IMG/VR virus record: IMGVR_UViG_3300032250_000070 | Location: 1 to 64,000 of that record | Source of the DNA: a virus | Taxonomy: Duplodnaviria; Heunggongvirae; Uroviricota; Caudoviricetes | Strand: one strand, 5' to 3' | Length of the DNA stretch: 64,000 nt | Part shown: positions 15,914 through 64,000 of the stretch, one piece after another | Layout of the letters: each line of letters begins with the position of its first letter | Numbering within the stretch: the stretch's first letter is position 1 | Translations under genes and position numbers: made by a program | Notes under the pieces: generated by a model | Database searches by the model: none | Told to the model about the DNA's origin: nothing | Seen by the model: the letters and a program-made list of their open reading frames with translations, nothing else

Positions 15914-17860
15914 ATGGCTTGTAATCCTGGCGATCCTTGCTACAACGCATACTATCATCCAAGTGAAAACTGTGGTTCTTTTCCTTGTGAAACAACAGCA
16001 GATCGTGTTATATATAATGGACCTAACTTACCTAATACAGGAATCAACACTGGAGATAATCTAGACTGTGCTCTATTAAAAATAGATGAAACATTTAGTG
16101 GTGGTGTAGTGGGTATAAATGGTACATCTGGTAGTTCTGGATTAAATGGATCTAGTGGTAGATCTGGTACTTCTGCCACTGCTGGCACATCTGGAGCTAA
16201 TGGTGCAGCAGGTACTTCTGGAACAAATGGTACATCAGGAAACAATGGTACTAGTGGTATATCTGGTACAAATGGTGTATCTGGAAGCTCTGGTACATCT
16301 GGTCGTGAAGGTCAGCCTGGTACCTCTGGTAGTTCTGCATCAAGTGGTTCATCAGGCACTTCTGCCACTGCAGGAACATCTGGAAGAGATGCAACTTCTG
16401 GTTCATCTGGTCAAGATGGTAGCTCTGGTACGAGTGCAAGCTCAGGTACATCTGCATCTAGTGGAACTTCTGGAACTACTGGTACTACTGGTACAAGTGG
16501 TACAACTGGAACTACTGGTACATCAGGAACATCAGGTGTTGATGGTGGTCTTGCAATCTGGCAATATAGTTCAGATACTACTGATACATCTATTAATCCT
16601 GGAGCAGGAAGGTTTACATTAAATACTTTACTTTGGAACGTTGCTCCAACACAGATTGCTCTAAGCGACTTTGCACAAATTCCTGCAGCAGATTTCTCTT
16701 TATATTTAGAAGGTATTCAAACTGGTGTAGTGTTTAAGTTTGTAAGTACAATTGATCCAAACAGATTCAAAATACTTCAAGTTATAGCTACAGCACCTTT
16801 TGAAACAGGGTTTGAAACATATGTTGTAAGTGAAATAGCGTGGAATGGTACAGCTCCAGCAAATGGTGAGCAATTTGTGTTCACTGTAACAAGTATTCCT
16901 GGTGCAGCTGGATCATCTGGCACATCTGGATCTTCAGCATCTAGTGGTACATCTGCGTCTAGTGGTACGTCTGCATCATCTGGAACCTCAGCATCTTCTG
17001 GAACAAGTGGAACCTCTGGTACCAACGGTACTAGTGGAACTAATGGAACTAGTGGTTCTAGTGCGACTAGTGGTTCTAGTGGAACTTCAGGTACTAATGG
17101 TACATCTGCTACTGCTGGAACAAATGGTACGTCTGCATCTAGTGGAACTAGTGGTTCTACAGGCACATCAGGTACTAATGGTACTAGTGGTTCTAATGGC
17201 ACCTCTGGAACAAATGGTACCACTGGAACATCAGCTTCTAGCGGTACATCTGCATCGTCTGGAACTAGTGCAGCAAATGGAGCAAACGGATCTAGTGGAA
17301 CAAGTGGAGCAAATGGTGGTAATGGATCTTCTGGAACCTCTGGAGCTAATGGTGGAGCTGGATCTTCTGGAACCTCTGGAGCTAATGGCGGAGCTGGTGG
17401 AGATGGATCTAGTGGAACTAGTGGAGCCAGTGGTGGAAGTGGTTCATCAGGAACTTCTGGAGTAGGGTTTACTTCCATTTCACCAACTAATTCAGGAGCT
17501 GTGCTAACAGCTAATGGAACATCTAATAGTGCAACAGCAAATACAGGTGTAACAATAAGTGGTTCTAATCTTACTGCCGCAGCATTTTTTGAAAGTTCAG
17601 ATGTAAGATTTAAAAATGTAATTGAAACCAATCCTCAAATAGATTTAACAGATATAGATATAATTAAGTTTACAAGAACTGATGATGATACCAATGCAGT
17701 AAGATATGGATATTCAGCACAACAAGTGCAATCTATATTACCAGATGCTGTGACAGGAGAAGACAAATTAAGTGTAAACTATATGGATGTTCACACATTG
17801 AAAATAGCAGCATTAGAAAAACGTATTGCAGAATTAGAAGCTAAATTGAGTAACTTATGA
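15914..17860 (+). CDS. collagen-like (G-X-Y, X-Y mostly T/S/N/A) tail fiber with C-terminal intramolecular chaperone / peptidase S74 auto-cleaving domain
   Basis: Two long GTSGTNGTSG... triple-helix repeat arrays lie at about nt 16120-16545 and 16900-17460. The C-terminal ~87 aa begin SDVRFKNVIE ... YGYSAQQ ... LPDAV ... VNYMDVHTLKIAALEKRIAELEAKL. This is the SDxRxKxNI start motif and coiled-coil tail of endosialidase/T5 L-shaped tail fiber chaperone domains. Confidence 0.85.
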   Translation: MACNPGDPCYNAYYHPSENCGSFPCETTADRVIYNGPNLPNTGINTGDNLDCALLKIDETFSGGVVGINGTSGSSGLNGSSGRSGTSATAGTSGANGAAGTSGTNGTSGNNGTSGISGTNGVSGSSGTSGREGQPGTSGSSASSGSSGTSATAGTSGRDATSGSSGQDGSSGTSASSGTSASSGTSGTTGTTGTSGTTGTTGTSGTSGVDGGLAIWQYSSDTTDTSINPGAGRFTLNTLLWNVAPTQIALSDFAQIPAADFSLYLEGIQTGVVFKFVSTIDPNRFKILQVIATAPFETGFETYVVSEIAWNGTAPANGEQFVFTVTSIPGAAGSSGTSGSSASSGTSASSGTSASSGTSASSGTSGTSGTNGTSGTNGTSGSSATSGSSGTSGTNGTSATAGTNGTSASSGTSGSTGTSGTNGTSGSNGTSGTNGTTGTSASSGTSASSGTSAANGANGSSGTSGANGGNGSSGTSGANGGAGSSGTSGANGGAGGDGSSGTSGASGGSGSSGTSGVGFTSISPTNSGAVLTANGTSNSATANTGVTISGSNLTAAAFFESSDVRFKNVIETNPQIDLTDIDIIKFTRTDDDTNAVRYGYSAQQVQSILPDAVTGEDKLSVNYMDVHTLKIAALEKRIAELEAKLSNL

Positions 17861-52662: not shown

Positions 52663-55600
52663 ATGGAAATTAGTTGTTCTAGTAAAGTTTGTCCAGTAAT
52701 ATTAGATTCTTCCTGCGTATTTTATGAAGGTCCTAATTTAATATATACAGGAATTAACACTAATGATAATCTTGAAACAGCTTTAGAAAAAATTGATGCT
52801 AAGTTTGGAGATGCCAACGTAGGATACATATTTAATAATGGTGTGTTTCAATCAACCCCTGGTGCACCTGTTGGACTAGGTGGTAGCATGGCAGCTAATA
52901 CAATCATTGTTGATAGTGGATATACATTAACCTATACAGGTGATTTCTATGCAGCGAAACATATAACGCTTGGAGGAACATCTTCAGATTTTGTAAAAGG
53001 AGATGGTTCTTTAGATTCAACATCATATCAACCAACTGGTAATTATATAACTAATTTAACAGGTGATGTAACAGCTAACGGACCAGGTTCTGTAACTGCT
53101 ACATTAGCAACAGTATTTGGTGCACCTGGTACATATGGTGATTCAGGAAATGTTCCTAGAATTACAGTGGATGGTAAGGGTAGAGTTACAAATGTAACCC
53201 CTGTAGCAATTAACTATCCATCTCAATCATTAAGTTTTGTAGGAGATGTAACTGGATTAGGATATACAGGATCTCCTGTAACACTAACCTTAGATACAGT
53301 TAATTCTGATGTATACGGAAGTGATACCTTCCTTAAATTTGCTGTGAATGGTAAAGGATTAGTTACATCAGCTGCTCCTATTACAAGTCTAGATATTGAC
53401 TCTGTACTAGGATATACTCCTGTTCCTACAACTAGGACAATAGATATAAATGGTGTAACACAAAACTTGGCATCTAATAGAAGTTGGTCTGTAGGAACTG
53501 TAACAAGTGTAGGGGTAACAATGCCTTCTGCATTTAGCGTAGGACCTCCTGTTACATCAAGTGGAAATATTGCCATCACAGCAATTGGTTCAACCTCTCA
53601 ATATATAAGAGGAGATGGTAGTCTTGGTAATGTTATAGGTGGTACATCAGGTACTAGTGGTATCAATGGTTCTTCAGGAATCAATGGTACAAGTGGACTT
53701 TCAGGAACCAATGGAACAAGTGGATTTAGTGGTACGAACGGATTAACTGGAACTAGTGGAATATCAGGCACATCTGGTACTAATGGAGCTAATGGAACAC
53801 GTGGAACTTCTGGATCTAGTGGTGTAGATGGAAGTTCAGGCACATCAGGAAGTGATGGTTCTAACGGAACATCTGGAATAAATGGTATAGATGGTTCTTC
53901 AGGTACTGCAGGTACTTCAGGTCAAGATGCAACAGCTGGTACATCAGGAACAAATGGCACCTCAGGAACATCAGCTTCTTCAGGTACAGTTGGTTCTAGT
54001 GGTACGTCTGGATCTTCTGGTTTATCTGGTACAAATGGCACATCTGGTACTACTGGTACCTCTGGTACAAGTGGAACAAATGGCACTTCTGGAACTTCAG
54101 GTTCTAGTGGAAATAGTGGAACATCTGGTACTAATGGAACAAGTGGAACAGTTGGAACCTCTGGAACTAATGGAACCTCAGCATCATCTGGATCTTCAGG
54201 TGCTAATGGAAGGTCAACTGAGTTGTTTCCATACAATGCTAGAACAACTGCTACATCAGGAGACCCTGGTGTTACAAATATAATTTGGAACAATGCTATT
54301 CAAATCTCAGCAACTCAAATTGGTATATCACACTTAGATAGCGATGGTGTTGATGTTGATGTATTTTTATCATTGATACCTACAGGAACAATGGTAATTA
54401 TACAAGATAGAACTAATAGTACTAATTATCAAAAATGGACTTTTGGAGCAGGAGTGGAAGTAGCACCAAATACATATTGGGAATTCCCAGCAACATATGT
54501 TGATGGTGGTTATTCTTTCTCAGATGGTCAAGATGTATTATTAATAGTAGCACAAACACCTTCAGGTACAAGTGGTACAAGTGGTATAAATGGCACAAGT
54601 GGTGTCTCTGGAACAAGTGGAAGCTCAGGAGTATCAGGAACTAATGGTGTATCTGGATCTTCAGGAACCACTGGTTCTTCTGGAACCTCAGGAGTAAGTG
54701 GTACAACAGGAACCTCTGCTAGCAGTGGGTCTAGTGGAACAACAGGTACTAGTGGAACGAATGGTGTCTCAGGAACAGCAGGTACTAGTGGTACTAATGG
54801 AACTTCTGCTACTAGTGGTATAAATGGTACGTCAGGAACAACAGGTACAAGCGGTACTAATGGAACAAGTGGTACCAATGGTACATCAGGAACAAATGGT
54901 ATTGATGGTTCTTCAGGATCAAGCGGTGCATCTGGAACACGTGGTACATCTGGCACCAATGGAACTTCAGGAACTAGTGGTACAACTGGAACTTCAGGTA
55001 CTTCTGCTTTATCAGGAACTAATGGAACCTCTGCATCTTCTGGTACATCTGGTACTAATGGAACTACTGGTACATCTGGCATTAGTGGTACAAATGGCAC
55101 CACTGGTACAAGTGGAACTAATGGAGCTAATGGTACATCAGGAGTGAGTGGCACATCTGGAACCAATGGCACCTCTGGAGTTGATGGATTAAATGGAACA
55201 TCAGGAACAAATGGAACTAGTGGTGTTGATGGAGCTAATGGAACCTCTGGGACCAATGGTACAAGTGGTACATCTGTATCTGTATCTGGTACTACTAATG
55301 ATATAGTTAAGTTTACAAGTGCATCCACTATAGGTGATAGTAATATAACAGATACAGGAACTTTAGTTACTATTGACTCAACCCATCGTTTTAATGGATT
55401 AGGAACTGTTCAAGGAACAACTGCTTCAGACACTGCACCATTGGGAGCAGAGTTAGCAGCAGTGACAGCTTCAGGTACTAACTGGACATTAGCAGGAACT
55501 AACTTAAACGTAGGTGGATACACGCACACCACTGGTTCTACAGCTAACTTAGTAAGTACATTAGCAGCAGTTATTGGAACGTATTACCAAGTGGTTTGGA

Positions 55601-56679
55601 CCATTACAGGAAGAACTACTGGTTCTGTTACTATAAATTATGGTGGTGCATCTACTGGAGCAAACATAGTTGCTTCAGGAACAACTGGTCCTTTGGCTAC
55701 AGCCACTGCTGTATTGACTGTTATTCCAACGACAGACTTTAATGGTACTGTAGCAATCAGTGTTAAGACCATTGGACTATCAAGTGCTTCTATTACTTAT
55801 TTAGATAGTGTAGGAACTATTAGAAATGAATTTAGAATTAATGATCTAAGTAATTTCTCTTTTGGAGTAGGGGCAGGTAGAAGAACTACAACAGCAACAA
55901 ATAATACAGCAGTTGGTGTAAGTGCATTACAAAATAACACAACAGGATCAAATAATGTAGCAATTGGTGCAAGTGCAATGCCTTTTAATAATACAGCATC
56001 TAACAATATAGCAATTGGTCAAAATGCATTGTTTAATAATACAACAGGAGCACCTAATATAGCAATTGGTACATCTGCATTGTCTGCTAGTGTAGGAGCA
56101 TCTAATAATGTAGCAATTGGACAGAGTGCATTGAGTCCTACTACAACCAATGGTAACACAGCAGTTGGTTCATTTGCAATGAGTGCTAATACAATAGGAA
56201 CATTTAATACAGCGATGGGTCAACTTGTAATGTCAACTGCTACAACAGGATCTAATAACATAGCTATGGGAAGAGAGGCTGGTCGTTACATAGCAAATAA
56301 AACTGGAGCAGTGGTTTTAGTAAACAATAGTGTATTTCTTGGATGGAGAACGTCTCCATTAGGAGATAACCAAACTAACCAAATTGTTATAGGATATGAC
56401 TCAATAGGACTAGGTTCTAACACAACTGTCTTAGGTAACACATCCACTACATTAACTGCTTTATACGGTGCTGTGATAACAGGAGGAACAGCTACTGATG
56501 CTTCTGCACAATTGCAAGCAGACTCTACAACTAAAGGTTTCTTACCTCCACGTATGACTTCTGCACAAAGAACAGCTATTGCATCTCCTGCAACAGGATT
56601 GATGGTTTATCAAACAGATGGTACAGAAGGTCTATATGTGAAAACATCAACAGTTTGGAGATTATTAACAATGACTTAA
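52663..56679 (+). CDS. collagen-like tail fiber (1338 aa) with two G-X-Y arrays, Hep_Hag/YadA-head-like NxAIG repeats and conserved C-terminal FLPPRMTSAQRTAIASP...YQTDG motif
   Basis: G-X-Y arrays at about 53640-54215 and 54570-55275. Repeats NNTAVGVSALQNNTTGSNNVAIGASAM...NNIAIGQNAL... at about 55860-56300. The N-terminus (Y.GPNL.YTGINT.DNL..ALEKID) is shared with the 15914 fiber. Confidence 0.8.
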   Translation: MEISCSSKVCPVILDSSCVFYEGPNLIYTGINTNDNLETALEKIDAKFGDANVGYIFNNGVFQSTPGAPVGLGGSMAANTIIVDSGYTLTYTGDFYAAKHITLGGTSSDFVKGDGSLDSTSYQPTGNYITNLTGDVTANGPGSVTATLATVFGAPGTYGDSGNVPRITVDGKGRVTNVTPVAINYPSQSLSFVGDVTGLGYTGSPVTLTLDTVNSDVYGSDTFLKFAVNGKGLVTSAAPITSLDIDSVLGYTPVPTTRTIDINGVTQNLASNRSWSVGTVTSVGVTMPSAFSVGPPVTSSGNIAITAIGSTSQYIRGDGSLGNVIGGTSGTSGINGSSGINGTSGLSGTNGTSGFSGTNGLTGTSGISGTSGTNGANGTRGTSGSSGVDGSSGTSGSDGSNGTSGINGIDGSSGTAGTSGQDATAGTSGTNGTSGTSASSGTVGSSGTSGSSGLSGTNGTSGTTGTSGTSGTNGTSGTSGSSGNSGTSGTNGTSGTVGTSGTNGTSASSGSSGANGRSTELFPYNARTTATSGDPGVTNIIWNNAIQISATQIGISHLDSDGVDVDVFLSLIPTGTMVIIQDRTNSTNYQKWTFGAGVEVAPNTYWEFPATYVDGGYSFSDGQDVLLIVAQTPSGTSGTSGINGTSGVSGTSGSSGVSGTNGVSGSSGTTGSSGTSGVSGTTGTSASSGSSGTTGTSGTNGVSGTAGTSGTNGTSATSGINGTSGTTGTSGTNGTSGTNGTSGTNGIDGSSGSSGASGTRGTSGTNGTSGTSGTTGTSGTSALSGTNGTSASSGTSGTNGTTGTSGISGTNGTTGTSGTNGANGTSGVSGTSGTNGTSGVDGLNGTSGTNGTSGVDGANGTSGTNGTSGTSVSVSGTTNDIVKFTSASTIGDSNITDTGTLVTIDSTHRFNGLGTVQGTTASDTAPLGAELAAVTASGTNWTLAGTNLNVGGYTHTTGSTANLVSTLAAVIGTYYQVVWTITGRTTGSVTINYGGASTGANIVASGTTGPLATATAVLTVIPTTDFNGTVAISVKTIGLSSASITYLDSVGTIRNEFRINDLSNFSFGVGAGRRTTTATNNTAVGVSALQNNTTGSNNVAIGASAMPFNNTASNNIAIGQNALFNNTTGAPNIAIGTSALSASVGASNNVAIGQSALSPTTTNGNTAVGSFAMSANTIGTFNTAMGQLVMSTATTGSNNIAMGREAGRYIANKTGAVVLVNNSVFLGWRTSPLGDNQTNQIVIGYDSIGLGSNTTVLGNTSTTLTALYGAVITGGTATDASAQLQADSTTKGFLPPRMTSAQRTAIASPATGLMVYQTDGTEGLYVKTSTVWRLLTMT

Positions 56680-56704
56680 TTTTTAACAAATAAAACAAAA
56701 CAAC

Positions 56705-56923
56705 ATGGCAACAGTACAAGAGTTACAAGCTCAATTAGAAGCTAAACAAAAACAAGTGAGAGAAGCTCAAGAAGCTAAAATGCAAGCTCGCATTGCAGCT
56801 AGAAAAGCTGAAGAAGAAGCTAAAGCAGCAGCTGAAGCAGCTAAGTCTGATGAAGAAAAGGCAGCTGACTTACAAGCTAAGCTTGCAGAATTAGATGTTC
56901 ATTTAGCAGAATTGCAAAAATAA
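56705..56923 (+). CDS. small A/E/K-rich coiled-coil protein
   Basis: 72 aa: MATVQELQAQLEAKQKQVREAQEAK... Confidence 0.45.
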   Translation: MATVQELQAQLEAKQKQVREAQEAKMQARIAARKAEEEAKAAAEAAKSDEEKAADLQAKLAELDVHLAELQK

Positions 56924-56975
56924 ATTTGGTTGTTTAACCTGGGTTAACTACCTTTGTTAACAAAACTAAATTTAG

Positions 56976-57842
56976 ATGAACATAATATTTCAAATTAATG
57001 GCGGTATTGGCAAGGTGATTGCTGGTACTGCCATTTGTGCTTCTATAAAGGCACAATACCCTGACGCTAAACTTATTGTTGTCTCTGGTTATCCAGATGT
57101 ATTCTTAGGTAATAAGAATGTGGACAGAGCTTATGCTTTTGGTCAACAAGCTTATTTCTATAAGGAATACATTGAGAATCAAGAGATTATGGTGTTTGGA
57201 CATGATCCATATTTAGATGCAAAACACATTAAGCAAGAAGAACACCTGATTGAAACATGGTGTAGAATCTATGATTTACCAGTGACAAAGACTGTTGGAG
57301 AACTATTCCTTACGCAAAGGGAAATAGATTTCTTCTCTAAGAAGTTTGTATCTGATAAGCCTATTTTTTTGATGCAAACTAATGGTGGTGCTGAAGCAGA
57401 CCAAAAGTATTCATGGGCTAGAGATATTCCTAGCTATGTAGTGGAGAATGTTATACATGAGTTCAAAGAACAATATAACATAGTACACATCAGAAGAGAT
57501 GATCAATTGCAATATGAAGGAACATTTGGTGTATCTGATACATTCAGAGCTCTTGTTGTGCTTATGAATCTTAGTGAGAAAAGATTGTTGATGGATAGCT
57601 TTGGTGAACATGCTGCAGCTGCTCTTAATAAACCTTCTACAGTGTTATGGATTGCTAATAGCCCTAAGGTGTTTGGTTATGACTTACATACAAACATTGT
57701 AGCTAAACCAGAAACAGTTGTTCCTGAATTACGCAATGCTTATTTAGGTAAATATAACATTGGAGGAGACCCTGTTGAGTTTCCTTACAACAATGAGTCT
57801 GAAATATTTGATGTAGACGCTGTAATTAAATCTTTTAAATAA
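56976..57842 (+). CDS. GT9-like (heptosyltransferase-family) glycosyltransferase
   Basis: A C-terminal region resembles the GT9 donor-binding segment ...ND(S)GpmHlAaAlg.P.v.lfG: LVVLMNLSEKRLLMDSFGEHAAAALNKPSTVLWIANSP. There is also a Rossmann-like N-terminus. Confidence 0.5.
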   Translation: MNIIFQINGGIGKVIAGTAICASIKAQYPDAKLIVVSGYPDVFLGNKNVDRAYAFGQQAYFYKEYIENQEIMVFGHDPYLDAKHIKQEEHLIETWCRIYDLPVTKTVGELFLTQREIDFFSKKFVSDKPIFLMQTNGGAEADQKYSWARDIPSYVVENVIHEFKEQYNIVHIRRDDQLQYEGTFGVSDTFRALVVLMNLSEKRLLMDSFGEHAAAALNKPSTVLWIANSPKVFGYDLHTNIVAKPETVVPELRNAYLGKYNIGGDPVEFPYNNESEIFDVDAVIKSFK

Positions 57843-57848
57843 CCCAAC

Positions 57849-58670
57849 ATGGAAAAAATATTCTATCAAAGCTCTTTACCTAGAGCAGGTTCTACATTAT
57901 TACAAAACATATTAGCTCAGAATCCTGATATATATGCTACACCTACAAGTGGTGTTCTTGAATTAGTGTTTGGAGCACGTGCAAATTATACTAATAGTGC
58001 AGAGTTCAAAGCACAAGATGCTGAACTTATGAAGAAGGGATGGCAAGCTTTTGCAAAGAATGGTATGGATGGTTTCTACAATGCTATTACAGATAAGAAA
58101 TATGTTATTGATAAAAGCAGAGGTTGGGGCATACACTATGACTTCTTACAGTTTGTACAAGGTGGTGAGCCTAAGGTTATATGTATGGTGAGAGACCTAC
58201 GTGATATCTTTGCTTCTATGGAAGGTAACTTTAGAAAGCATCCTGAGAAGCAATCTGACATATTAGATTGGTCAAAGGGACAAGGAACCACTACACCTAA
58301 GCGTATTGATATCTGGGCTCAAGGTCCTCCTGTAGGACTAGCTATTGAAAGACTTAGTGAGATATTTAGAACTGGTGTAAATAGTAAAATGTTATTTGTT
58401 AAGTTTGAAGACTTGTGTTTATATCCAGAAAGAGAAATGGCTAAGATATATCACTACTTAGATATTCCTTACTTTGAACATGACTTTGATAACATTGAGC
58501 AAGTGACCAAGGAAGATGATGAAATCTATGGTGCATTTGGTGACCATGTTATTCGTACAAAGCTTGAGCCTGTAAGAAGTAGAGCTAAAGAATTATTAGG
58601 TAAGGATGTTAGTGATTGGATCTATACAAATTACAAATGGTTCTTTGACCAATTTAGATATACTAAGTAA
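57849..58670 (+). CDS. PAPS-dependent sulfotransferase
   Basis: An N-terminal 5'-PSB-like loop SLPRAGSTLLQNIL (compare PRSGSTLL). The downstream sequence MVRDLRDIFASM resembles the 3'-PB RDPRD region. Confidence 0.7.
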   Translation: MEKIFYQSSLPRAGSTLLQNILAQNPDIYATPTSGVLELVFGARANYTNSAEFKAQDAELMKKGWQAFAKNGMDGFYNAITDKKYVIDKSRGWGIHYDFLQFVQGGEPKVICMVRDLRDIFASMEGNFRKHPEKQSDILDWSKGQGTTTPKRIDIWAQGPPVGLAIERLSEIFRTGVNSKMLFVKFEDLCLYPEREMAKIYHYLDIPYFEHDFDNIEQVTKEDDEIYGAFGDHVIRTKLEPVRSRAKELLGKDVSDWIYTNYKWFFDQFRYTK

Positions 58671-59464
58671 TGAAAACTAAGTTTGATATAAACATATACA
58701 AAATACAAAAGAAAGATTTTGTTAATGCGTTTCACAGCAATACATTAAAGTATGCATTGTTCCCTAATGATAATGCTGTAACAAGTTCTATTATACAGGG
58801 ATGGCAGTATGAGAAGTATATGTTTGACTTCTTGAATAGAAATCAGATAGATTGTGAGGGTAAAACAATACTTGACATTGGTGCTAACAATGGTTCCTTT
58901 GCTATAGACTTTGCCCATTTAGTTGGAGACAACGGAATGGTACATAGCTTTGAACCTCAGAGACTAGTGTATTATCAACTATGTGGTAATGTGTTTATGA
59001 ATGGATTGGATAATGTATATTGTTATAACAATGCTATTGGTAGCTGTGTAGACAGTGTATATATAGAATCTCCAAATTACTTTGATAAAGGAGCTGTTAA
59101 CTTTGGTAATGTCAAAGTTAGTACAGAAGGAGAAAGAGTTGTACAGGTTCCTTTGGATTCTTTCACCTTTGACAATGTTGTATTCATTAAAATTGATGTA
59201 CAAGGATATGAGTTAAATGTAATCAAGGGAGCTGTAAATACTATTGCTAAAAATAGACCTTATCTATTTGTAGAGTTTGAAGAAGACTTGTTAATAGAAG
59301 CTAAGACTAGTGAAAAGGAATTACAAAAAGAAATAGAAGACTTAGGATATATAGTTAAGAGGTTTCAAGAAGGCATACCATATCAAACAACCAGTGGTAA
59401 GTGTCTAGACTGTGTATGTATACCTAAAGAAAAGTTTGAAGAATTTAATCACATTATACCATGA
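58670..59464 (+). CDS. FkbM-family SAM-dependent methyltransferase
   Basis: ILDIGANNGSFAIDFA...GMVHSFEPQRLVYYQLCGNVFMNGLDNV...NNAIG is the FkbM_methyltransferase signature (D[IV]GAN.G...EP.P). Confidence 0.8.
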   Translation: MKTKFDINIYKIQKKDFVNAFHSNTLKYALFPNDNAVTSSIIQGWQYEKYMFDFLNRNQIDCEGKTILDIGANNGSFAIDFAHLVGDNGMVHSFEPQRLVYYQLCGNVFMNGLDNVYCYNNAIGSCVDSVYIESPNYFDKGAVNFGNVKVSTEGERVVQVPLDSFTFDNVVFIKIDVQGYELNVIKGAVNTIAKNRPYLFVEFEEDLLIEAKTSEKELQKEIEDLGYIVKRFQEGIPYQTTSGKCLDCVCIPKEKFEEFNHIIP

Positions 59465-59910
59465 TAACAGTATTATTTGGACAGCCTCATTCAGGCAAGA
59501 CAACTCTATCTCATGAGTTAGAAAGTTGGACATTAGATGGAGACAAGCTTAGGGCTGTGTTCCAGGACAAAGATTTCTCTAGAGAAGGACGTATTAAAAA
59601 CCTAAATAGAGCTAGTGACATTGCTGTGTTTATGCATTCAATATACAAGAATATCTCAATAGCTATGGTCTATCCATATAAAGAAGCTAGAGATTATTTA
59701 AACAACCTGTGTACTAAGCTAGGAGTAGAGATTGTATGGGTACACTTATATTATTCTGAACAAAGAGGTAGAGAAGCTTTTCATGTACAAGATTTTGAAT
59801 TAGATCTTTTAGAAGAAAATGTTCTATCTTTGAACACTTCAATGTATTCAATAGAAGAATGTATTGCTCAAATTAAAAACTATACAAATGAATATTCTAG
59901 CAAAAGGTAA
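59461..59910 (+). CDS. cysC: adenylylsulfate (APS) kinase
   Basis: P-loop VLFGQPHSGKTTLSHELE. LDGDKLRAVFQDKDFSREGRIKNLNRASDIAVFM aligns with the CysC LDGDNVRHGLN.DLGFS..DR.ENIRRIGEVAKLF block. Confidence 0.85.
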   Translation: MITVLFGQPHSGKTTLSHELESWTLDGDKLRAVFQDKDFSREGRIKNLNRASDIAVFMHSIYKNISIAMVYPYKEARDYLNNLCTKLGVEIVWVHLYYSEQRGREAFHVQDFELDLLEENVLSLNTSMYSIEECIAQIKNYTNEYSSKR

Positions 59911-60271
59911 TGGTAATGGAAGTGGACATGCAATGTTTATTGGTAGATGGCAGCCATGGCACAAAGGTCATAGATGGTTAATAGACCAAGCATTAAATGA
60001 AGGAAAGAATGTACTCCTATGTATAAGAGATGTCACTCCTGATGAAAAGAATCCATGGTCTCCTATTGAGGTGATGATGAATCTAACAGAAGAATTAATG
60101 GATCTTATTGAGAAAGGAAGAGTTAAACTCATGATTATACCTGATATTGAATCTATCAATATTGGTAGAGGTATAGGATATGATGTTATAGAACACACAC
60201 CTCCACAAGATATACATGACATCTCAGCAACTAAGATTAGAGAACAAATGAAAGCAGAAGGTAAGTTATGA
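59888..60271 (+). CDS. minimal HIGH-motif nucleotidyltransferase, NadM/NMNAT-like (cytidylyltransferase superfamily)
   Basis: FIGRWQPWHKGH compares with GRFQPFHKGH. A C-terminal ISATKIREQM compares with YSGTEIRRRM of archaeal NadM. The start is uncertain: in-frame ATGs at 59864, 59888 and 59933. Confidence 0.65.
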   Translation: MNILAKGNGNGSGHAMFIGRWQPWHKGHRWLIDQALNEGKNVLLCIRDVTPDEKNPWSPIEVMMNLTEELMDLIEKGRVKLMIIPDIESINIGRGIGYDVIEHTPPQDIHDISATKIREQMKAEGKL

Positions 60272-60477
60272 TAGTAGAAAAGAAAAGACACTTAGCTAAG
60301 ACAATAAGCTATAGAGTGTTAAGCACAGCAATAGGCTTTGGAATTATGTGGGCTATCAGTGGGTCTATAAAGGTGGGTGCTGCCTTTGGTGTAGCTGAAC
60401 TAGTTTACAAACCAATTCAATACTACATCCATGAGCGTATATGGTATAAGTGGATTAAGTATGGATTAAAGAAGTAA
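60268..60477 (+). CDS. DUF2061-like small membrane protein
   Basis: 69 aa. AKTISYRVLSTAIGFGIMWAI...YYIHERIWYKW fits the DUF2061 pattern (KT..WR..T...........HER.W), a family often found with or fused to APS kinase. Confidence 0.55.
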   Translation: MIVEKKRHLAKTISYRVLSTAIGFGIMWAISGSIKVGAAFGVAELVYKPIQYYIHERIWYKWIKYGLKK

Positions 60478-61531
60478 CCACACCAATAACATCATTAACA
60501 GAAATACTCTTATGACATTCAAATTGTCTAGGAGTATTTTCATTTTCAGGACACCAGTTCCAATTGCCCTTATCAAATTTAAACAGAGGATTGTTCCAAC
60601 AACCATTGCACACTTCTGGATTGGTTATACGAGTGCAGTCTTCTTGGAACTCATGGTCTGATGTAGTGAAGTTAGAGATCATTACAGTGTGCTTGCCAAC
60701 AGCCCAGTTTAACCAACTGATGCCACTAGAAAGACCAATGAAAAGATCTGCATGGTGTAGATAGTTCATTACGTTCTGTAAGGATTTATCTTCTAATATC
60801 TCAGCACCATAGTCATCTGCTTCTTGAGACATCTCAATCACTCTATATCCCCAAGTCTTTAACTGAGCAATTAACTCTGGCCAGTAGTACCAGTGCTTAC
60901 ATTGTGATGTAGATCTAGTAGATATACAGATATACTCATTCACTATAGGTCTTTCTCCTGGTGTAAATGCTAGTCTAGGTCTTGTTTCTTTAAATGGTAA
61001 AGCTAATACATTACTAGCTGTCTGTTGTAAAGGAATGGTGACAGGATTTACAGGTTCTTTATACTCATCCCAAAACCAACCAAACTCCACTCTTGCTATA
61101 ATATTATGCACTACAATTCCTCTTCCTACAAACTCTAGTTCAGGATACACCTTCTCAAATAGGAAATTCTTGAATGTAGATACTACAACCTTACATTTAT
61201 ACTTCTCTTGGAATTCTAAACAGTATGGCATCCAAGCAAGGGTATCACCTAAACTACTAGACTCAAATACAATAAACACACGCTTGTCTTTGAGCTCATC
61301 TAGTATATTGATTTGTTTTATTATACGTCCTTCATACTTAACAAATATGGCTATATCAGATATATATTTCCTACTAAGCTTAGACCAAGTTCCTGGTTTT
61401 AACTTGCTTTCATATATGCTACTTTTAGAATCTCTATCTACAAACTGTACATCATACTCTCTATTCTTTCCTCCATCATCTAACAACTCAAAGTAAAGTC
61501 CATCAACGTGGTGTAGGTTATAAGTTATCAT
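60455..61531 (-). CDS. GT9-like (heptosyltransferase-family) glycosyltransferase
   Basis: LFIGLSSGISWLNWAVGKHTVMISNFTT compares with the GT9 lvigNDSGpmHLAaAlg.PtvalFGpT block. Confidence 0.55.
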   Translation of the reverse strand: MITYNLHHVDGLYFELLDDGGKNREYDVQFVDRDSKSSIYESKLKPGTWSKLSRKYISDIAIFVKYEGRIIKQINILDELKDKRVFIVFESSSLGDTLAWMPYCLEFQEKYKCKVVVSTFKNFLFEKVYPELEFVGRGIVVHNIIARVEFGWFWDEYKEPVNPVTIPLQQTASNVLALPFKETRPRLAFTPGERPIVNEYICISTRSTSQCKHWYYWPELIAQLKTWGYRVIEMSQEADDYGAEILEDKSLQNVMNYLHHADLFIGLSSGISWLNWAVGKHTVMISNFTTSDHEFQEDCTRITNPEVCNGCWNNPLFKFDKGNWNWCPENENTPRQFECHKSISVNDVIGVVTSLIHT

Positions 61532-62531
61532 ATGCGTTTATATATAATTGTTTTGTTCTTTCTGATGTATATCCTTCATTAATCTTTAGTACATTCTGGT
61601 AGTACTTCTTTAATATCTTAGCCACTTCAAACCAACTTCTACTCTCACGTACAGCCATCATCTCTTGTCTCCTTTTATCATAGCTTAGAAGAGTCTCGAC
61701 TATACCTTTTGTAACTGTCTCTGTACTAATACTTGGAATCACCCACATACCATCCATGTGCCTAGAGCCTTTGTAAGTTCCTACAATAGGAAGAGCACTG
61801 GCTGTAGCTTCCATAAGTGTTAGGTTTGGATGACCAGCTTCTAAGAAAGAAGGATGTAAGAATATTGTATGTGATTGATATAGATCTCTCATCTCTTCAT
61901 CTGTAGGATTTGTTAACTTTAAAGTTAACTTTGGATAGTCTAATAAGTCTTTATGGTGTTCAAAGAACTTATTGTTATCAGGATGACCAGCTACTGTAAT
62001 AGGTAGATCTAACTCCTTAGCTGCTTCAATACCATATCTAAATCCTTTTCTATCTATACTACTATTTCCTGCTAATCCATTATTAGCTATCATTAATAAC
62101 TTGTGGTTCTTAGGACTATGATCTGGTGTAAAGAAATCTGTGTTAGCCCCATGTGATAAATAGAATAACTTATCAGTAGTATCAAAGTAATTTATATAAT
62201 GCTCAGTGTGAGTCAATGAAATAATACTTCCTTTAATAGCTTCTAGGTTTTGTTTAAACACCCAGCTATCTTTACCATACCACTCAACATGGTGATCATG
62301 TAGAGAGTAGATGTAAGGAATACCAAGATCTCTACAGTGAATAGCCTGGTTAGCTAAGTGAGTATGTACAATTGTATCTGGCCATTTCTCTAGCTCATTC
62401 ATATATTTGATGTCAACTTGGACATCTAACTTTTCTAAGTTTTGTTTATACTCCCATATAAGTCTTTCTACAGCTCCCCATCCATTTGGTGGTATGGTTA
62501 TTAACCCTGTAGCTACGTGTACTATTCTCAT
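61518..62531 (-). CDS. GT4-family (GT-B) glycosyltransferase
   Basis: It has the EX7E-type motif HPSFLEAGHPNLTLMEATASALPIVGT. The N-terminus, MRIVHVATGLITIPPNGWGAVERLI, is typical of GT4. Confidence 0.75.
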   Translation of the reverse strand: MRIVHVATGLITIPPNGWGAVERLIWEYKQNLEKLDVQVDIKYMNELEKWPDTIVHTHLANQAIHCRDLGIPYIYSLHDHHVEWYGKDSWVFKQNLEAIKGSIISLTHTEHYINYFDTTDKLFYLSHGANTDFFTPDHSPKNHKLLMIANNGLAGNSSIDRKGFRYGIEAAKELDLPITVAGHPDNNKFFEHHKDLLDYPKLTLKLTNPTDEEMRDLYQSHTIFLHPSFLEAGHPNLTLMEATASALPIVGTYKGSRHMDGMWVIPSISTETVTKGIVETLLSYDKRRQEMMAVRESRSWFEVAKILKKYYQNVLKINEGYTSERTKQLYINAYDNL

Positions 62532-64000
62532 TTTCTAAATGTTTTATGTGTATTATCAATTAAGGAGAACCCATCTGCTTGGGTAGTAAGTCTGTTATGT
62601 ACAATCCCCATAGGATGCCCCATAAAGATATTATTAAAATACATATCAGCTGCATCCCACTTGTGCAATCTAAGCACATCTTTTAACCATGGAGCAGTCT
62701 TAATAGGGAACATAATACATTGTAAACCAATAATGTGGTCTGTAACATACATTGTTTCATTGACTTCTTGCCTTACAGGAGACTGAGGCCAGCCCTGTTC
62801 TAAGGTGTCTTTATCTCCAAAGGACATGATGTCTATGTTGTTTGGTCCCAATAAGTGTGCACATTCCTCAACTTTTTGTACGAAAAAGTGTATGTCTGTC
62901 TCAATGATACAATCCCCTTCACATACAATCAGATAGTCACAGTCATGGAATTCCATTAGGATGGCATTCTTGAATGCTTCGTAGCATCCATAATGTGCTG
63001 GGGTAAGTGCAGTACCATGCTGTTGAACTTGCTGTTCATTGAAGAGTTCCATTGAAACGCATAGTGGTCGCATACAGTTGTGAGCTGGTGGTAAAGACTT
63101 ATAGGGCTCGTTAGTGTGTAGGATATATTCCCACCCATGGTCTGCCACTTGTTCAAGGGATGCTCTACTTGCTTGTTCTCTTTCATCATTTAATGTAGTT
63201 TGTATGTGAACTAATTTTATTCTTGGTCTATCTGTTTTCTTCCACATAAACTTACCTGTATTTTCGTACAGGTGTAATGTATCTTTATCTAAGTAAAACT
63301 CTTCCACCTTATAAGAAAGATCTCCATCATAGAAATCTAGTCTCACTGTAATAGGTTTTCCTTTGAATTCAAACTGATAAACCCATTCATGTGACTGTGA
63401 AGGAATTATTCTCTTTGACATATCTTCTCCAACACTTACGTATATCTTTCTATTGTCTCTATTATATGTAAAGAAATAGAACACATAAGTGTTTGGTTTT
63501 CCAACAACAGGAATGATAGAATAATACTCACTATTAGATGCTACACCTAATCCACTGTGAACCAGGAAGGTATCCTTGTCATTAGTAACTAATTGTATAT
63601 CATTAGGATTGAAGCTAAAGATAACCTTTGATAAGTAGTCTTCTAGATAGTTCTCACATCCTCTTCTCTTACACACGTCATTCCACTGCTCTGGTGTACG
63701 TACATCATCAAACTCCTTTAGGAAGAAGTCTGTGTCAAACATAATACCATTGGTCTGAATTCCCTTACCCTGAGGTGTAGGGAGTGTAGCAGCATACAAC
63801 TTCTTATCTGTTCTAAATGCTTCATTCACTGCAGGTATATCTCTAGGATCTAATGTAACATCATATGTAGTGTAGAAGAATCTCTTGAATCCAAGTTCTC
63901 TAGCAACCTTAGCTGCGTTATATATGTTAGTTAAGACAGTGAGAGATTGGTTACTACTCTTCAGTCCATTGATGTTGATCTCAGCAAAGTAGTCTGGTCT
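62528..64000 (-). CDS. putative glycosyltransferase / polysaccharide-modifying enzyme, 5'-truncated by window end
   Basis: The reading frame remains open to nt 64000 upstream of the GTG chosen by the ORF track (manual translation ...RPDYFAEININGLKSSNQSLTVLTNIYNAAKVARELGFKRFFYTTYDVTLDPRDIPAVNEAF...). The C-terminal half has a GT-A-like acidic segment, FHDCDYLIVCEGDCII. Confidence 0.4.
   Translation of the reverse strand, partial: RPDYFAEININGLKSSNQSLTVLTNIYNAAKVARELGFKRFFYTTYDVTLDPRDIPAVNEAFRTDKKLYAATLPTPQGKGIQTNGIMFDTDFFLKEFDDVRTPEQWNDVCKRRGCENYLEDYLSKVIFSFNPNDIQLVTNDKDTFLVHSGLGVASNSEYYSIIPVVGKPNTYVFYFFTYNRDNRKIYVSVGEDMSKRIIPSQSHEWVYQFEFKGKPITVRLDFYDGDLSYKVEEFYLDKDTLHLYENTGKFMWKKTDRPRIKLVHIQTTLNDEREQASRASLEQVADHGWEYILHTNEPYKSLPPAHNCMRPLCVSMELFNEQQVQQHGTALTPAHYGCYEAFKNAILMEFHDCDYLIVCEGDCIIETDIHFFVQKVEECAHLLGPNNIDIMSFGDKDTLEQGWPQSPVRQEVNETMYVTDHIIGLQCIMFPIKTAPWLKDVLRLHKWDAADMYFNNIFMGHPMGIVHNRLTTQADGFSLIDNTHKTFRK

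Follow-up and report, generated by a model that had tools for sequence, protein, structure and literature searches.

The 64,000-nt stretch analysed here and called the window below (positions 1 to 64,000 of the IMG/VR record IMGVR_UViG_3300032250_000070, a virus of the Caudoviricetes) raises the question of what a phage might do with the island of glycosyltransferase, methyltransferase and sulfation genes that lies at 56976-64000, after its last tail fibre gene. An initial annotation, made from the letters alone, had seen here a toolkit for a sulfated and methylated glycan and had offered both the host envelope and the virion proteins as its target. Our answer, drawn from sequence comparisons and held with roughly even confidence, is that the island would be a phage-encoded cytoplasmic system modifying the phage's own structural proteins with a heptose-based, methylated and sulfated glycan. 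The nine open reading frames (ORFs) and their convergent arrangement were borne out by the coordinates, with six genes on the + strand (56976-60477) and three on the - strand (60455-64000). Each enzyme family named earlier is backed by a profile or structure search, with the corrections given below.

A predicted phage protein O-heptosyltransferase

Two GT9-like glycosyltransferases had been counted in the island. The one encoded at 60455-61531 on the - strand (358 aa) proved to be more specific than that: it matched the Aah/TibC profile TIGR04414 with 250.3 bits, above the equivalog cut-off of 200, whereas Glyco_transf_9 gave 29.5 bits and the lipopolysaccharide (LPS) heptosyltransferase I profile only 24 bits. 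Residues 25-355 aligned with the TibC structure 4rap at an E-value of 1e-48. By its sequence the protein is a member of the Aah/TibC family at equivalog level, that is a BAHT-type protein O-heptosyltransferase, and not a generic GT9 enzyme.

In TibC the base is Asp-110, Fe is bound by C339, C342, C358 and C370, ADP-heptose is bound by T226, K230, R286 and W305, and the N-terminal barrel region and the iron finger handle the protein substrate (PMC4358343). The phage enzyme has D96 at the position of Asp-110 and C308, C311, C327 and C339 as iron-finger cysteines, all invariant in 10 phage homologues, and it keeps three of the four sugar-binding residues as T208, K212 and W273.

The relatives of the island point to the sugar and to the partners of this enzyme. 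Three close relatives, the viral loci L040, L133 and L135, hold a complete five-gene pathway for ADP-L-glycero-D-manno-heptose inside the island, between the genes for adenosine 5'-phosphosulfate (APS) kinase and a small nucleotidyltransferase, hence heptose is the likely sugar. The cassette (L040:7526-10136, L133:7475-10088 and L135:873-3465) consists of a cupin that replaces GmhA, a HAD phosphatase, and HldC-, HldA- and HldD-like genes. Further, the BAHT domain is fused with a methyltransferase and a GT4 glycosyltransferase in L040 and with a GT4 in Microcystis phage Mel-JY01, so that BAHT, GT4 and methyltransferase would be expected to share one substrate.

Fibres as candidate acceptors

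The tail fibre encoded upstream of the island (52663-56679, + strand, 1338 aa) matches Pfam Collagen with 181 bits and has six Gly-X-Y tracts in which X and Y are almost all Ser or Thr, these two residues making up 32% of the protein. A second fibre (15914-17860) is of the same kind, the pair having 32-34% Ser+Thr and Gly-X-Y tracts filled almost solely by Ser and Thr. Judging from this composition, we regard the fibre at 52663-56679 as a candidate O-glycosylation acceptor. The poly-Thr/Ser linkers to which the initial annotation drew attention in the structural proteins are indeed present, as mucin-like stretches in the muzzle protein and in two structural proteins of smaller size, and the Ser/Thr-filled Gly-X-Y repeats come in addition to them.

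The link between fibre and enzyme was seen beyond the window. When viral loci of 10 kb or more were compared, a Ser/Thr-rich collagen-like ORF was found in 32 of the 47 with a BAHT and in none of the 36 that bear the small nucleotidyltransferase without a BAHT (Fisher p ~1e-11, ignoring shared ancestry).

Two further observations concern the fibre gene at 52663-56679. In its C-terminal third the product closes with tandem NNxA(I/V)GxxA(L/M) units, which resemble the YadA-head/Hep_Hag repeats of trimeric autotransporter adhesins and on which Pfam is silent. Between 53891 and 55328 overlapping frames are open on both strands, giving ORFs of 107-266 aa, and these are almost certainly artefacts of the collagen repeats and not genes.

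Further glycosyltransferases and the methyltransferase

The GT4 (GT-B) glycosyltransferase encoded at 61518-62531 (- strand, 337 aa) scored 33.5 bits on Glyco_trans_1_4 and 26.7 bits on Glycos_transf_1, in line with its earlier assignment, and its gene is syntenic with the BAHT gene in about 22 viral loci. The last ORF (62528-64000, - strand) had been listed as a further putative glycosyltransferase; the fold model agrees with the enzyme type, but 62528-63829 is not a complete gene, as the frame is open to base 64000. It encodes the C-terminal ~490 aa of a two-domain glycosyltransferase. The orthologue in L001 has 884 aa with a GT4 domain at its N-terminus, and the window holds the GT-A half of a GT4+GT-A fusion of ~880 aa whose GT4 domain lies beyond base 64000. 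For the C-terminal 244 aa (GT-A domain, 62531-63262) a GT-A fold of the GT25/GT13-like type was predicted with a pLDDT of 87 and an acidic DxD-type motif, and PBCV-1 A64R and Mimivirus R655/R699 were among its top structural neighbours.

The other protein called GT9-like (56976-57842, + strand, 288 aa) is so by profile-profile comparison only. It had no Pfam match at E 0.1, PF01075 included, and no PDB match by sequence or profile, while hhalign aligned it as a GT-B fold protein to the BAHT family over 182 columns (71%, E 3.6e-5), the DSxxxHxAAA signature included. Its Lys13 (in GGIGK) stands where bona fide GT9 enzymes and BAHTs have the catalytic Asp, and this lysine is invariant among 6 homologues; homologues of the protein occur in L001, L022, L035, L038 and L040. 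In viral loci its gene almost always adjoins that of an ST273-type sulfotransferase. The protein may be an adaptor or perform a different chemistry, and not be a conventional glycosyltransferase.

The FkbM-family methyltransferase, S-adenosylmethionine-dependent by family (58670-59464, + strand, 264 aa), exceeds both curated cut-offs, with 89 bits on TIGR01444 (cut-off 37.7) and 65 bits on Methyltransf_21 (PF05050; cut-off 22.7), which confirms its assignment as an O-methyltransferase of this family.

Sulfotransferase, kinase and DUF2061 protein

The sulfotransferase (57849-58670, + strand, 273 aa) lies above the Pfam cut-offs of both Sulfotransfer_3 (58 bits, cut-off 27) and Sulfotransfer_1 (38 bits, cut-off 22). 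It carries the 5'-phosphosulfate loop PRAGST at residues 11-16 and the 3'-phosphate motif RDLRD at 114-118, both expected of an enzyme that uses 3'-phosphoadenosine 5'-phosphosulfate (PAPS), as had been claimed for it. A weak match to NoeE is its sole NCBIfam match, and a weak match to TPST1 was found in the PDB. Homologues annotated as sulfotransferase, 27-30% identical, are encoded by the Synechococcus phages S-SKS1, S-SCSM1 and S-SRM01.

The gene at 59461-59910 (+ strand, 149 aa) had been presented as a bona fide APS kinase. The Pfam match (APS_kinase PF01583, 33.1 bits, cut-off 21.1) and the motifs support the family, namely the P-loop GQPHSGKTT, LDGDKLR (LDGDxLR) and FSREGRIKNLNR (FSxxGRxxNxxR), and in the PDB the Aeropyrum APS kinase 2yvu is matched best (E 8e-5). 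It is however a divergent short-lid variant: it reaches 29-31 bits on the NCBIfam equivalogs against cut-offs of 127-139, and ~18 lid residues (canonical DPKGLYKKAR...FTGI) are missing throughout the phage-type subfamily. From the residues it keeps, we consider this P-loop kinase to be APS-kinase-like and probably active.

The DUF2061 protein (60268-60477, + strand, 69 aa; PF09834, 62 bits) is a membrane protein with two hydrophobic helices, and no functional literature on it was found. The statement that it commonly accompanies cysC applies to viral contigs, where its gene is found within 2.5 kb of the small nucleotidyltransferase (NT) gene in 44 of 74 loci and is a frequent third member of an APS kinase-NT cassette, but not to the cellular APS kinase-NT loci examined, beside which it was not seen except on one probable phage contig. 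A 90% identical copy is present in an unrelated myovirus-like contig. The cassette, with or without DUF2061, gave at least 578 IMG/VR matches and is common in aquatic viral contigs, so the earlier description of the gene set as highly unusual holds for the papers searched, in which it is unreported, and not for the cassette. In the window the DUF2061 (+) and BAHT (-) genes converge and their 3' ends overlap by 23 bases (60455-60477), with no terminator-like hairpin between them.

A minimal nucleotidyltransferase as candidate ATP sulfurylase

The gene at 59888-60271 (+ strand, 127 aa) encodes a minimal nucleotidyltransferase with HxGH and ISxTxxR motifs (CTP_transf_like, 28 bits), which had been recognised as such and left without a function. 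Translation probably begins with the ATG at 59888, to judge from the length of 127-128 aa in homologues. By sequence similarity NT is one of a large family, as yet without a name, that is present in phages and many bacterial phyla; a first search at E <=0.001 gave 7,550 proteins, the closest of them 127-128 aa long, and 1,076 were found among cluster representatives.

The company that this family keeps points to sulfate activation. Among the 150 best NT representatives 33 were multidomain, and 30 of these 33 contained an APS-kinase domain, in both domain orders; some of the fused kinases are canonical CysC, with 230 bits on PF01583. In our viral sample (80 NT loci, 79 of them testable) the gene directly before NT is an APS-kinase gene 73 times, and of 80 cellular loci from many phyla, collected by a genome scan built on a 12-sequence NT alignment with flanks of 6 kb, 45 have the kinase fused to NT or beside it. 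Neighbours of the cellular APS kinase-NT pairs include eight sulfotransferases and three sulfatases, an enrichment, and neither Sat, CysD nor CysN is among their top neighbour families. In Nitrospirota (L053:5039-6411; L057) NT follows directly upon an APS-reductase-type CysH with the CC...CxxC cluster motif, and no APS kinase is present. The pair resembles an assimilatory APS pathway of two genes, with the arrangement expected for a sulfurylase and an APS reductase. From its fusion or adjacency to CysC, CysH and sulfotransferases, we suggest that NT is most likely a minimal ATP sulfurylase, and sulfate-to-PAPS synthesis would therefore be self-contained. APS formation is thermodynamically unfavourable, and a coupled APS kinase pulls the reaction forward.

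The closest sequence and fold matches of NT are the archaeal NMNAT/NadM enzymes (1f9a, 1ej2), with which it has GRxQPxHxGH and ISxTxxR in common. The NMNAT profile match is limited to the ATP-binding half (positions 5-77), full-length similarity to NadM was not seen as the NMN-binding C-terminal half is unmatched, and NT has 127 aa against 168-181 aa. At the HMM-aligned nicotinamide site of NMNAT, NT has an invariant GRxVGY. The match to Sat (PF01747) was below threshold (E 0.0026), and NT has neither the QxRNPxHxxH/GRDHAG motifs nor a PUA-like domain; by fold comparison NMNAT, PPAT and ATP sulfurylase are not separable for NT.

Other roles were also considered for the family. A heptose-1-phosphate adenylyltransferase was rejected because L040, like L133 and L135, has an HldC-like gene of its own in addition to NT. 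A PPAT-like partner in coenzyme A synthesis was rejected on the canonical CysC nature of the fused kinases. A link to a 3'-phosphoadenosine 5'-phosphate phosphatase through an NT+DHHA1 fusion (P0255) was weak and was not used, DHHA1 being below the Pfam cut-off and without a PDB match.

It should be noted that related proteins are available in cultivable phages. A kinase-NT fusion of 246 aa (phrog_10255), ~30% identical to the NT of the window, is encoded by Salvovirus siphophages whose hosts are Xylella, Xanthomonas and Stenotrophomonas, for example by Xylella phage Bacata (L121, 29138-29878). In another viral lineage (L123, 1-16228, and L124) the APS kinase-NT pair is accompanied by 3-4 prolyl-hydroxylase-like 2-oxoglutarate-Fe(II) oxygenases, DUF2061 and radical SAM/SPASM genes, with a 1661-aa protein adjoining, which suggests a different protein-modification package around the same sulfate-activation cassette.

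Phage location and conservation of the island

The window has recognisable genes for terminase, portal and major head protein, and all ORFs of at least 150 aa within 1-56679 lie on the + strand and form the structural arm of the phage. The muzzle protein matches PF25731 (crassvirus muzzle) with 136 bits, and terminase and portal match phrog_6681 and phrog_6547; from these matches we tentatively term this freshwater phage crAss-like. Its terminase is 40% identical to that of the nearest isolate, Leptolyngbya phage Lbo-JY46, 31% to those of Cellulophaga phages and 27% to those of gut crAss phages. For the Bacteroidetes host assumed earlier there is a weak hint only, in that four related contigs were binned into metagenome-assembled genomes (MAGs) of Bacteroidota.

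With the BAHT as query, 37 IMG/VR loci were obtained, and in about 20 of them the GT4+GT-A fusion, the GT4 and the BAHT are syntenic beside the fibre gene. On L001, a contig of 117 kb, the island runs on through GT9, FkbM and DUF6165 to a GH19 endolysin, and the order is repeated on L040, whose 112-kb contig was assigned to a Cytophagia MAG. The initial annotation had pointed out that flanking host genes would make the island bacterial; in the relatives it is instead bounded by tail fibre and endolysin genes, on viral contigs 100-117 kb long, and hence it is phage-borne and not a prophage edge.

As to whether the block is conserved, the GT4+GT-A/GT4/BAHT core is syntenic across relatives whereas the sulfation set comes and goes. 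Most relatives have the BAHT core without the sulfation set, and 65 of the 80 viral NT loci have the APS kinase-NT cassette without a BAHT. In L038, L040 and the window, GT4 and FkbM genes lie in between those of the sulfation set.

Proposed pathway and rival explanations

The pathway that we propose starts from what the comparisons show, namely the enzyme families, the catalytic residues that are kept, the gene fusions, the synteny and the position within a phage genome. From these we infer which sugar is donated and to what acceptor, in what order the reactions follow, and that NT is a sulfurylase. NT would form APS from sulfate and ATP, and the short-lid kinase would probably turn APS into PAPS. 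The BAHT, a protein O-heptosyltransferase by family, would transfer heptose from ADP-heptose onto Ser/Thr residues in structural proteins of the phage, among which the Ser/Thr-rich collagen-like fibres encoded just upstream are the likeliest acceptors, possibly along with the poly-Thr/Ser linkers of other virion proteins. The GT4, the GT4+GT-A fusion and, in relatives, further GT9 enzymes may then lengthen the glycan, which the FkbM enzyme would O-methylate and to which the sulfotransferase, working with its GT9-like Lys13 partner, would add sulfate; the DUF2061 protein may be a membrane accessory.

Such a sulfated, methylated glycan, as had been foreseen, is a reasonable product of the island. 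Of the two targets offered, the virion proteins gained specific support from the BAHT family membership and its co-localisation with the fibres. No flippase, polymerase or lipid-carrier transferase gene was seen in profile scans of the island proteins. As such genes were not seen, as the enzymes are of soluble cytoplasmic type and as BAHTs work in the cytoplasm (PMC4358343), we favour modification of virion proteins before assembly. In its fullest form, with NT as a third, minimal class of ATP sulfurylase that acts with the lid-less APS kinase as a PAPS synthase, of two genes or fused, and feeds the sulfation of a heptose-initiated, methylated fibre O-glycan, the proposal is a tentative one.

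Several observations weigh against this pathway. In the phage BAHT the heptose-binding R286 of TibC is replaced by Val, and no ADP-heptose genes are found in the visible 64 kb. Known BAHT acceptors are beta-helical autotransporters and not collagen-like repeats, and the association of collagen-like ORFs with the BAHT is in part inherited synteny of one phage lineage and in part a matter of the genome position of the loci. Enzymes of the GT9, GT4 and GT25-like families are also typical of LPS core synthesis at the cytoplasmic membrane face. In one viral group (L137-L163 and similar, e.g. L145:9541-11229) the APS kinase-NT pair lies amid N6/N4 DNA methylases, DUF3310 and nucleotide-metabolism genes, and no sulfotransferase or DUF2061 is recognisable in these loci. 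The Salvovirus fusions adjoin a gene annotated COG3236 / GTP cyclohydrolase II, a possible link to NAD or riboflavin metabolism. Stand-alone NT copies (126-152 aa, 42-48% identical) occur in housekeeping contexts in Thermodesulfobacteriota/Dadabacteria and Pelagibacteraceae (SAR11) (L082, L060, L115, L099); in other SAR11 single-cell genomes a short APS-kinase-like gene lies just upstream of NT.

These points lend themselves to other explanations, of which the most probable, a possible though still doubtful one in our view, concerns NT. It may be an adenylyltransferase of nicotinamide or nicotinic acid mononucleotide or of another small molecule, serving for example NAD salvage against NAD-depleting defences, while the kinase uses APS of the host. 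The NadM-like best matches, the name NMNAT given to some members by JGI, the COG3236 / GTP cyclohydrolase II neighbours in Salvovirus, the housekeeping contexts of stand-alone copies and the viral group lacking a visible sulfotransferase fit such an enzyme. However, the similarity covers just the ATP-binding N-terminal 77 profile positions, NT is ~50 residues shorter and has an invariant Gly-Arg at the aligned nicotinamide site, presumably the substrate pocket, and there would be no rationale for CysC fusions in both orders or for the adjacency to the APS reductase CysH and to sulfotransferases. It is unlikely, and more so than an NMNAT role of NT, that the island holds two unrelated cargoes, a sulfate-activation cassette acting on host sulfur metabolism or a small molecule and a separate BAHT/GT4/GT-A module, with no sulfated glycan. 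The two sets do vary independently, with BAHT cores lacking the sulfation set in most relatives and the cassette lacking a BAHT in the greater part of the viral NT loci, and they lie on opposite strands in the window. They are nonetheless tied together by the consistent pairing of the sulfotransferase with a GT-B-fold protein, by the interleaving in L038, L040 and the window, and by the ADP-heptose cassette between APS kinase and NT in three relatives, and the nearest named relatives of the sulfotransferase, both weak, act on glycans (NoeE) or proteins (TPST).

That the phage proteins are not the target at all, and that the enzymes remodel the host LPS core or a surface polysaccharide for superinfection exclusion or to keep progeny from adsorbing to debris, we consider rather improbable, if less so than two separate cargoes. 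GT9, GT4 and GT25-like enzymes are the classic families of LPS/lipooligosaccharide cores, one homologue of the GT-A domain was named GR25 LPS glycosyltransferase by JGI, core assembly proceeds at the cytoplasmic face so that a phage flippase would be unnecessary, and the DUF2061 protein is a membrane protein. Yet the GT9 enzyme that could be assigned at equivalog level belongs to the protein-modifying Aah/TibC family, with N-terminal barrel and iron finger, and scored low on LPS heptosyltransferase I; the BAHT is closely co-localised with Ser/Thr-rich fibre genes, and the 64-kb window of this crAss-like phage gave no integrase or lysogeny signal. We give the least credence to a sulfotransferase that acts directly on side chains of virion proteins, for instance on tyrosine in the manner of TPST or RaxST. 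The enzyme is in the Sulfotransfer_3 family and its sole PDB sequence matches are protein-tyrosine sulfotransferases, with a PR(S/A)G(S/T)T loop (E ~1e-3), but these matches are weak and restricted to the PAPS-binding motifs, the sugar sulfotransferase NoeE is matched equally weakly, and the gene is consistently paired with that of a glycosyltransferase-fold protein.

Relation to known systems

Among known systems the heptosyltransferase part is closest to Aah/AIDA-I and TibC/TibA, which have in common with the phage enzyme the family, the catalytic Asp, the Fe(Cys)4 finger and the N-terminal region, and which are likewise cytoplasmic with a gene adjoining that of a large repetitive surface protein. 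Aah and TibC are dodecameric and their acceptors are beta-helical, self-associating autotransporters. The phage BAHT differs in that it is found in a lytic-type phage, with no autotransporter in the window and a collagen-like Ser/Thr fibre adjoining, and in that R286 is not kept. As it is accompanied by further glycosyltransferases, a methyltransferase and a sulfation set, an elaborated glycan is expected rather than a single heptose.

Viruses that decorate their own structural proteins by cytoplasmic glycosyltransferases of their own are known from mycobacteriophages (capsid and tail glycosylation) and from chlorovirus PBCV-1 (A064R). These systems have multi-domain fusions of glycosyltransferase and methyltransferase, as in L040. 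To our knowledge phage-encoded glycosylation of virions has been described for very few systems, none of them with heptose, a BAHT or sulfate, and we know of no phage system that combines sulfate activation with a sulfotransferase. A private sulfate activation clustered with a carbohydrate sulfotransferase is found in rhizobia as NodP/NodQ with NodH/NoeE, NodPQ being homologues of CysD/CysN-CysC. The phage island differs from these in that the candidate for the sulfurylase, an HxGH nucleotidyltransferase of 127 aa, is unrelated to them and that its kinase is without a lid. The NT fusions resemble the PAPS synthases (animal PAPSS, kinase-sulfurylase; bacterial and fungal Sat-CysC), in which a nucleotidyltransferase-superfamily domain is joined to an APS kinase in either order, but the NT domain has ~110 aa and lacks the PUA-like domain and the signatures of Sat. 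With NadM it has GRxQPxHxGH and ISxTxxR in common, while its context is sulfate activation and not NAD synthesis. The cyanophages S-SKS1, S-SCSM1 and S-SRM01 carry the same sulfotransferase family; they were absent from the matches when the phage collection was searched with NT and with the BAHT.

Phage-encoded virion glycosylation, sulfur auxiliary genes and cyanophage sulfotransferases are already known. In the literature searched we found no description of a phage BAHT, of a self-contained PAPS pathway tied to a glycosylation island, or of NT as a sulfurylase candidate, nor any cytidylyltransferase-like partner of APS kinase or the phrase "phage sulfotransferases". If the proposal is true, this would be the first sulfated glycoprotein virion of any bacterial virus, and a negatively charged, methylated fibre glycan would alter sticking to mucus, polysaccharide and host surfaces as well as evasion of recognition. 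The PAPS module would then be mobile among aquatic phages, and it would be found also in Marinimicrobia, Bacteroidota, Planctomycetota, Omnitrophota, Nitrospirota and some SAR11.

As a lead, the sulfurylase hypothesis reaches further than the island itself. Should NT be an ATP sulfurylase, it would represent a non-orthologous displacement at the first step of sulfate activation, unrelated in signature to both Sat and CysD. Predictions of sulfate assimilation and sulfation would then need revision, because members of the NT family are found in abundant aquatic lineages, whose sulfur metabolism is judged by whether sat/cysDN are present. Further, a two-domain PAPS synthase of ~280 aa would be a compact tool for enzymatic sulfation.

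Other features of the window

The window encodes very large fibre proteins, and between 36676 and 47643 it holds one ORF of 3655 aa, with neighbours of 1666 aa and 975/925 aa. None of these gave a Pfam match; the 3655-aa ORF is presumably a crAss-type tail or ejected protein. A tRNA scan of the window found none, and megablast of 56000-64000 against isolated phages gave no match, no isolate being similar in DNA. The scan of the island for promoters and terminators was uninformative, as the sites were no more numerous than in shuffles. Between the fibre gene and the island lies a gene for a 72-aa, Ala/Glu/Lys-rich coiled-coil protein (56705-56923, + strand) with weak alanine-zipper-like matches only, and L040 has a gene of 73 aa at the equivalent position.

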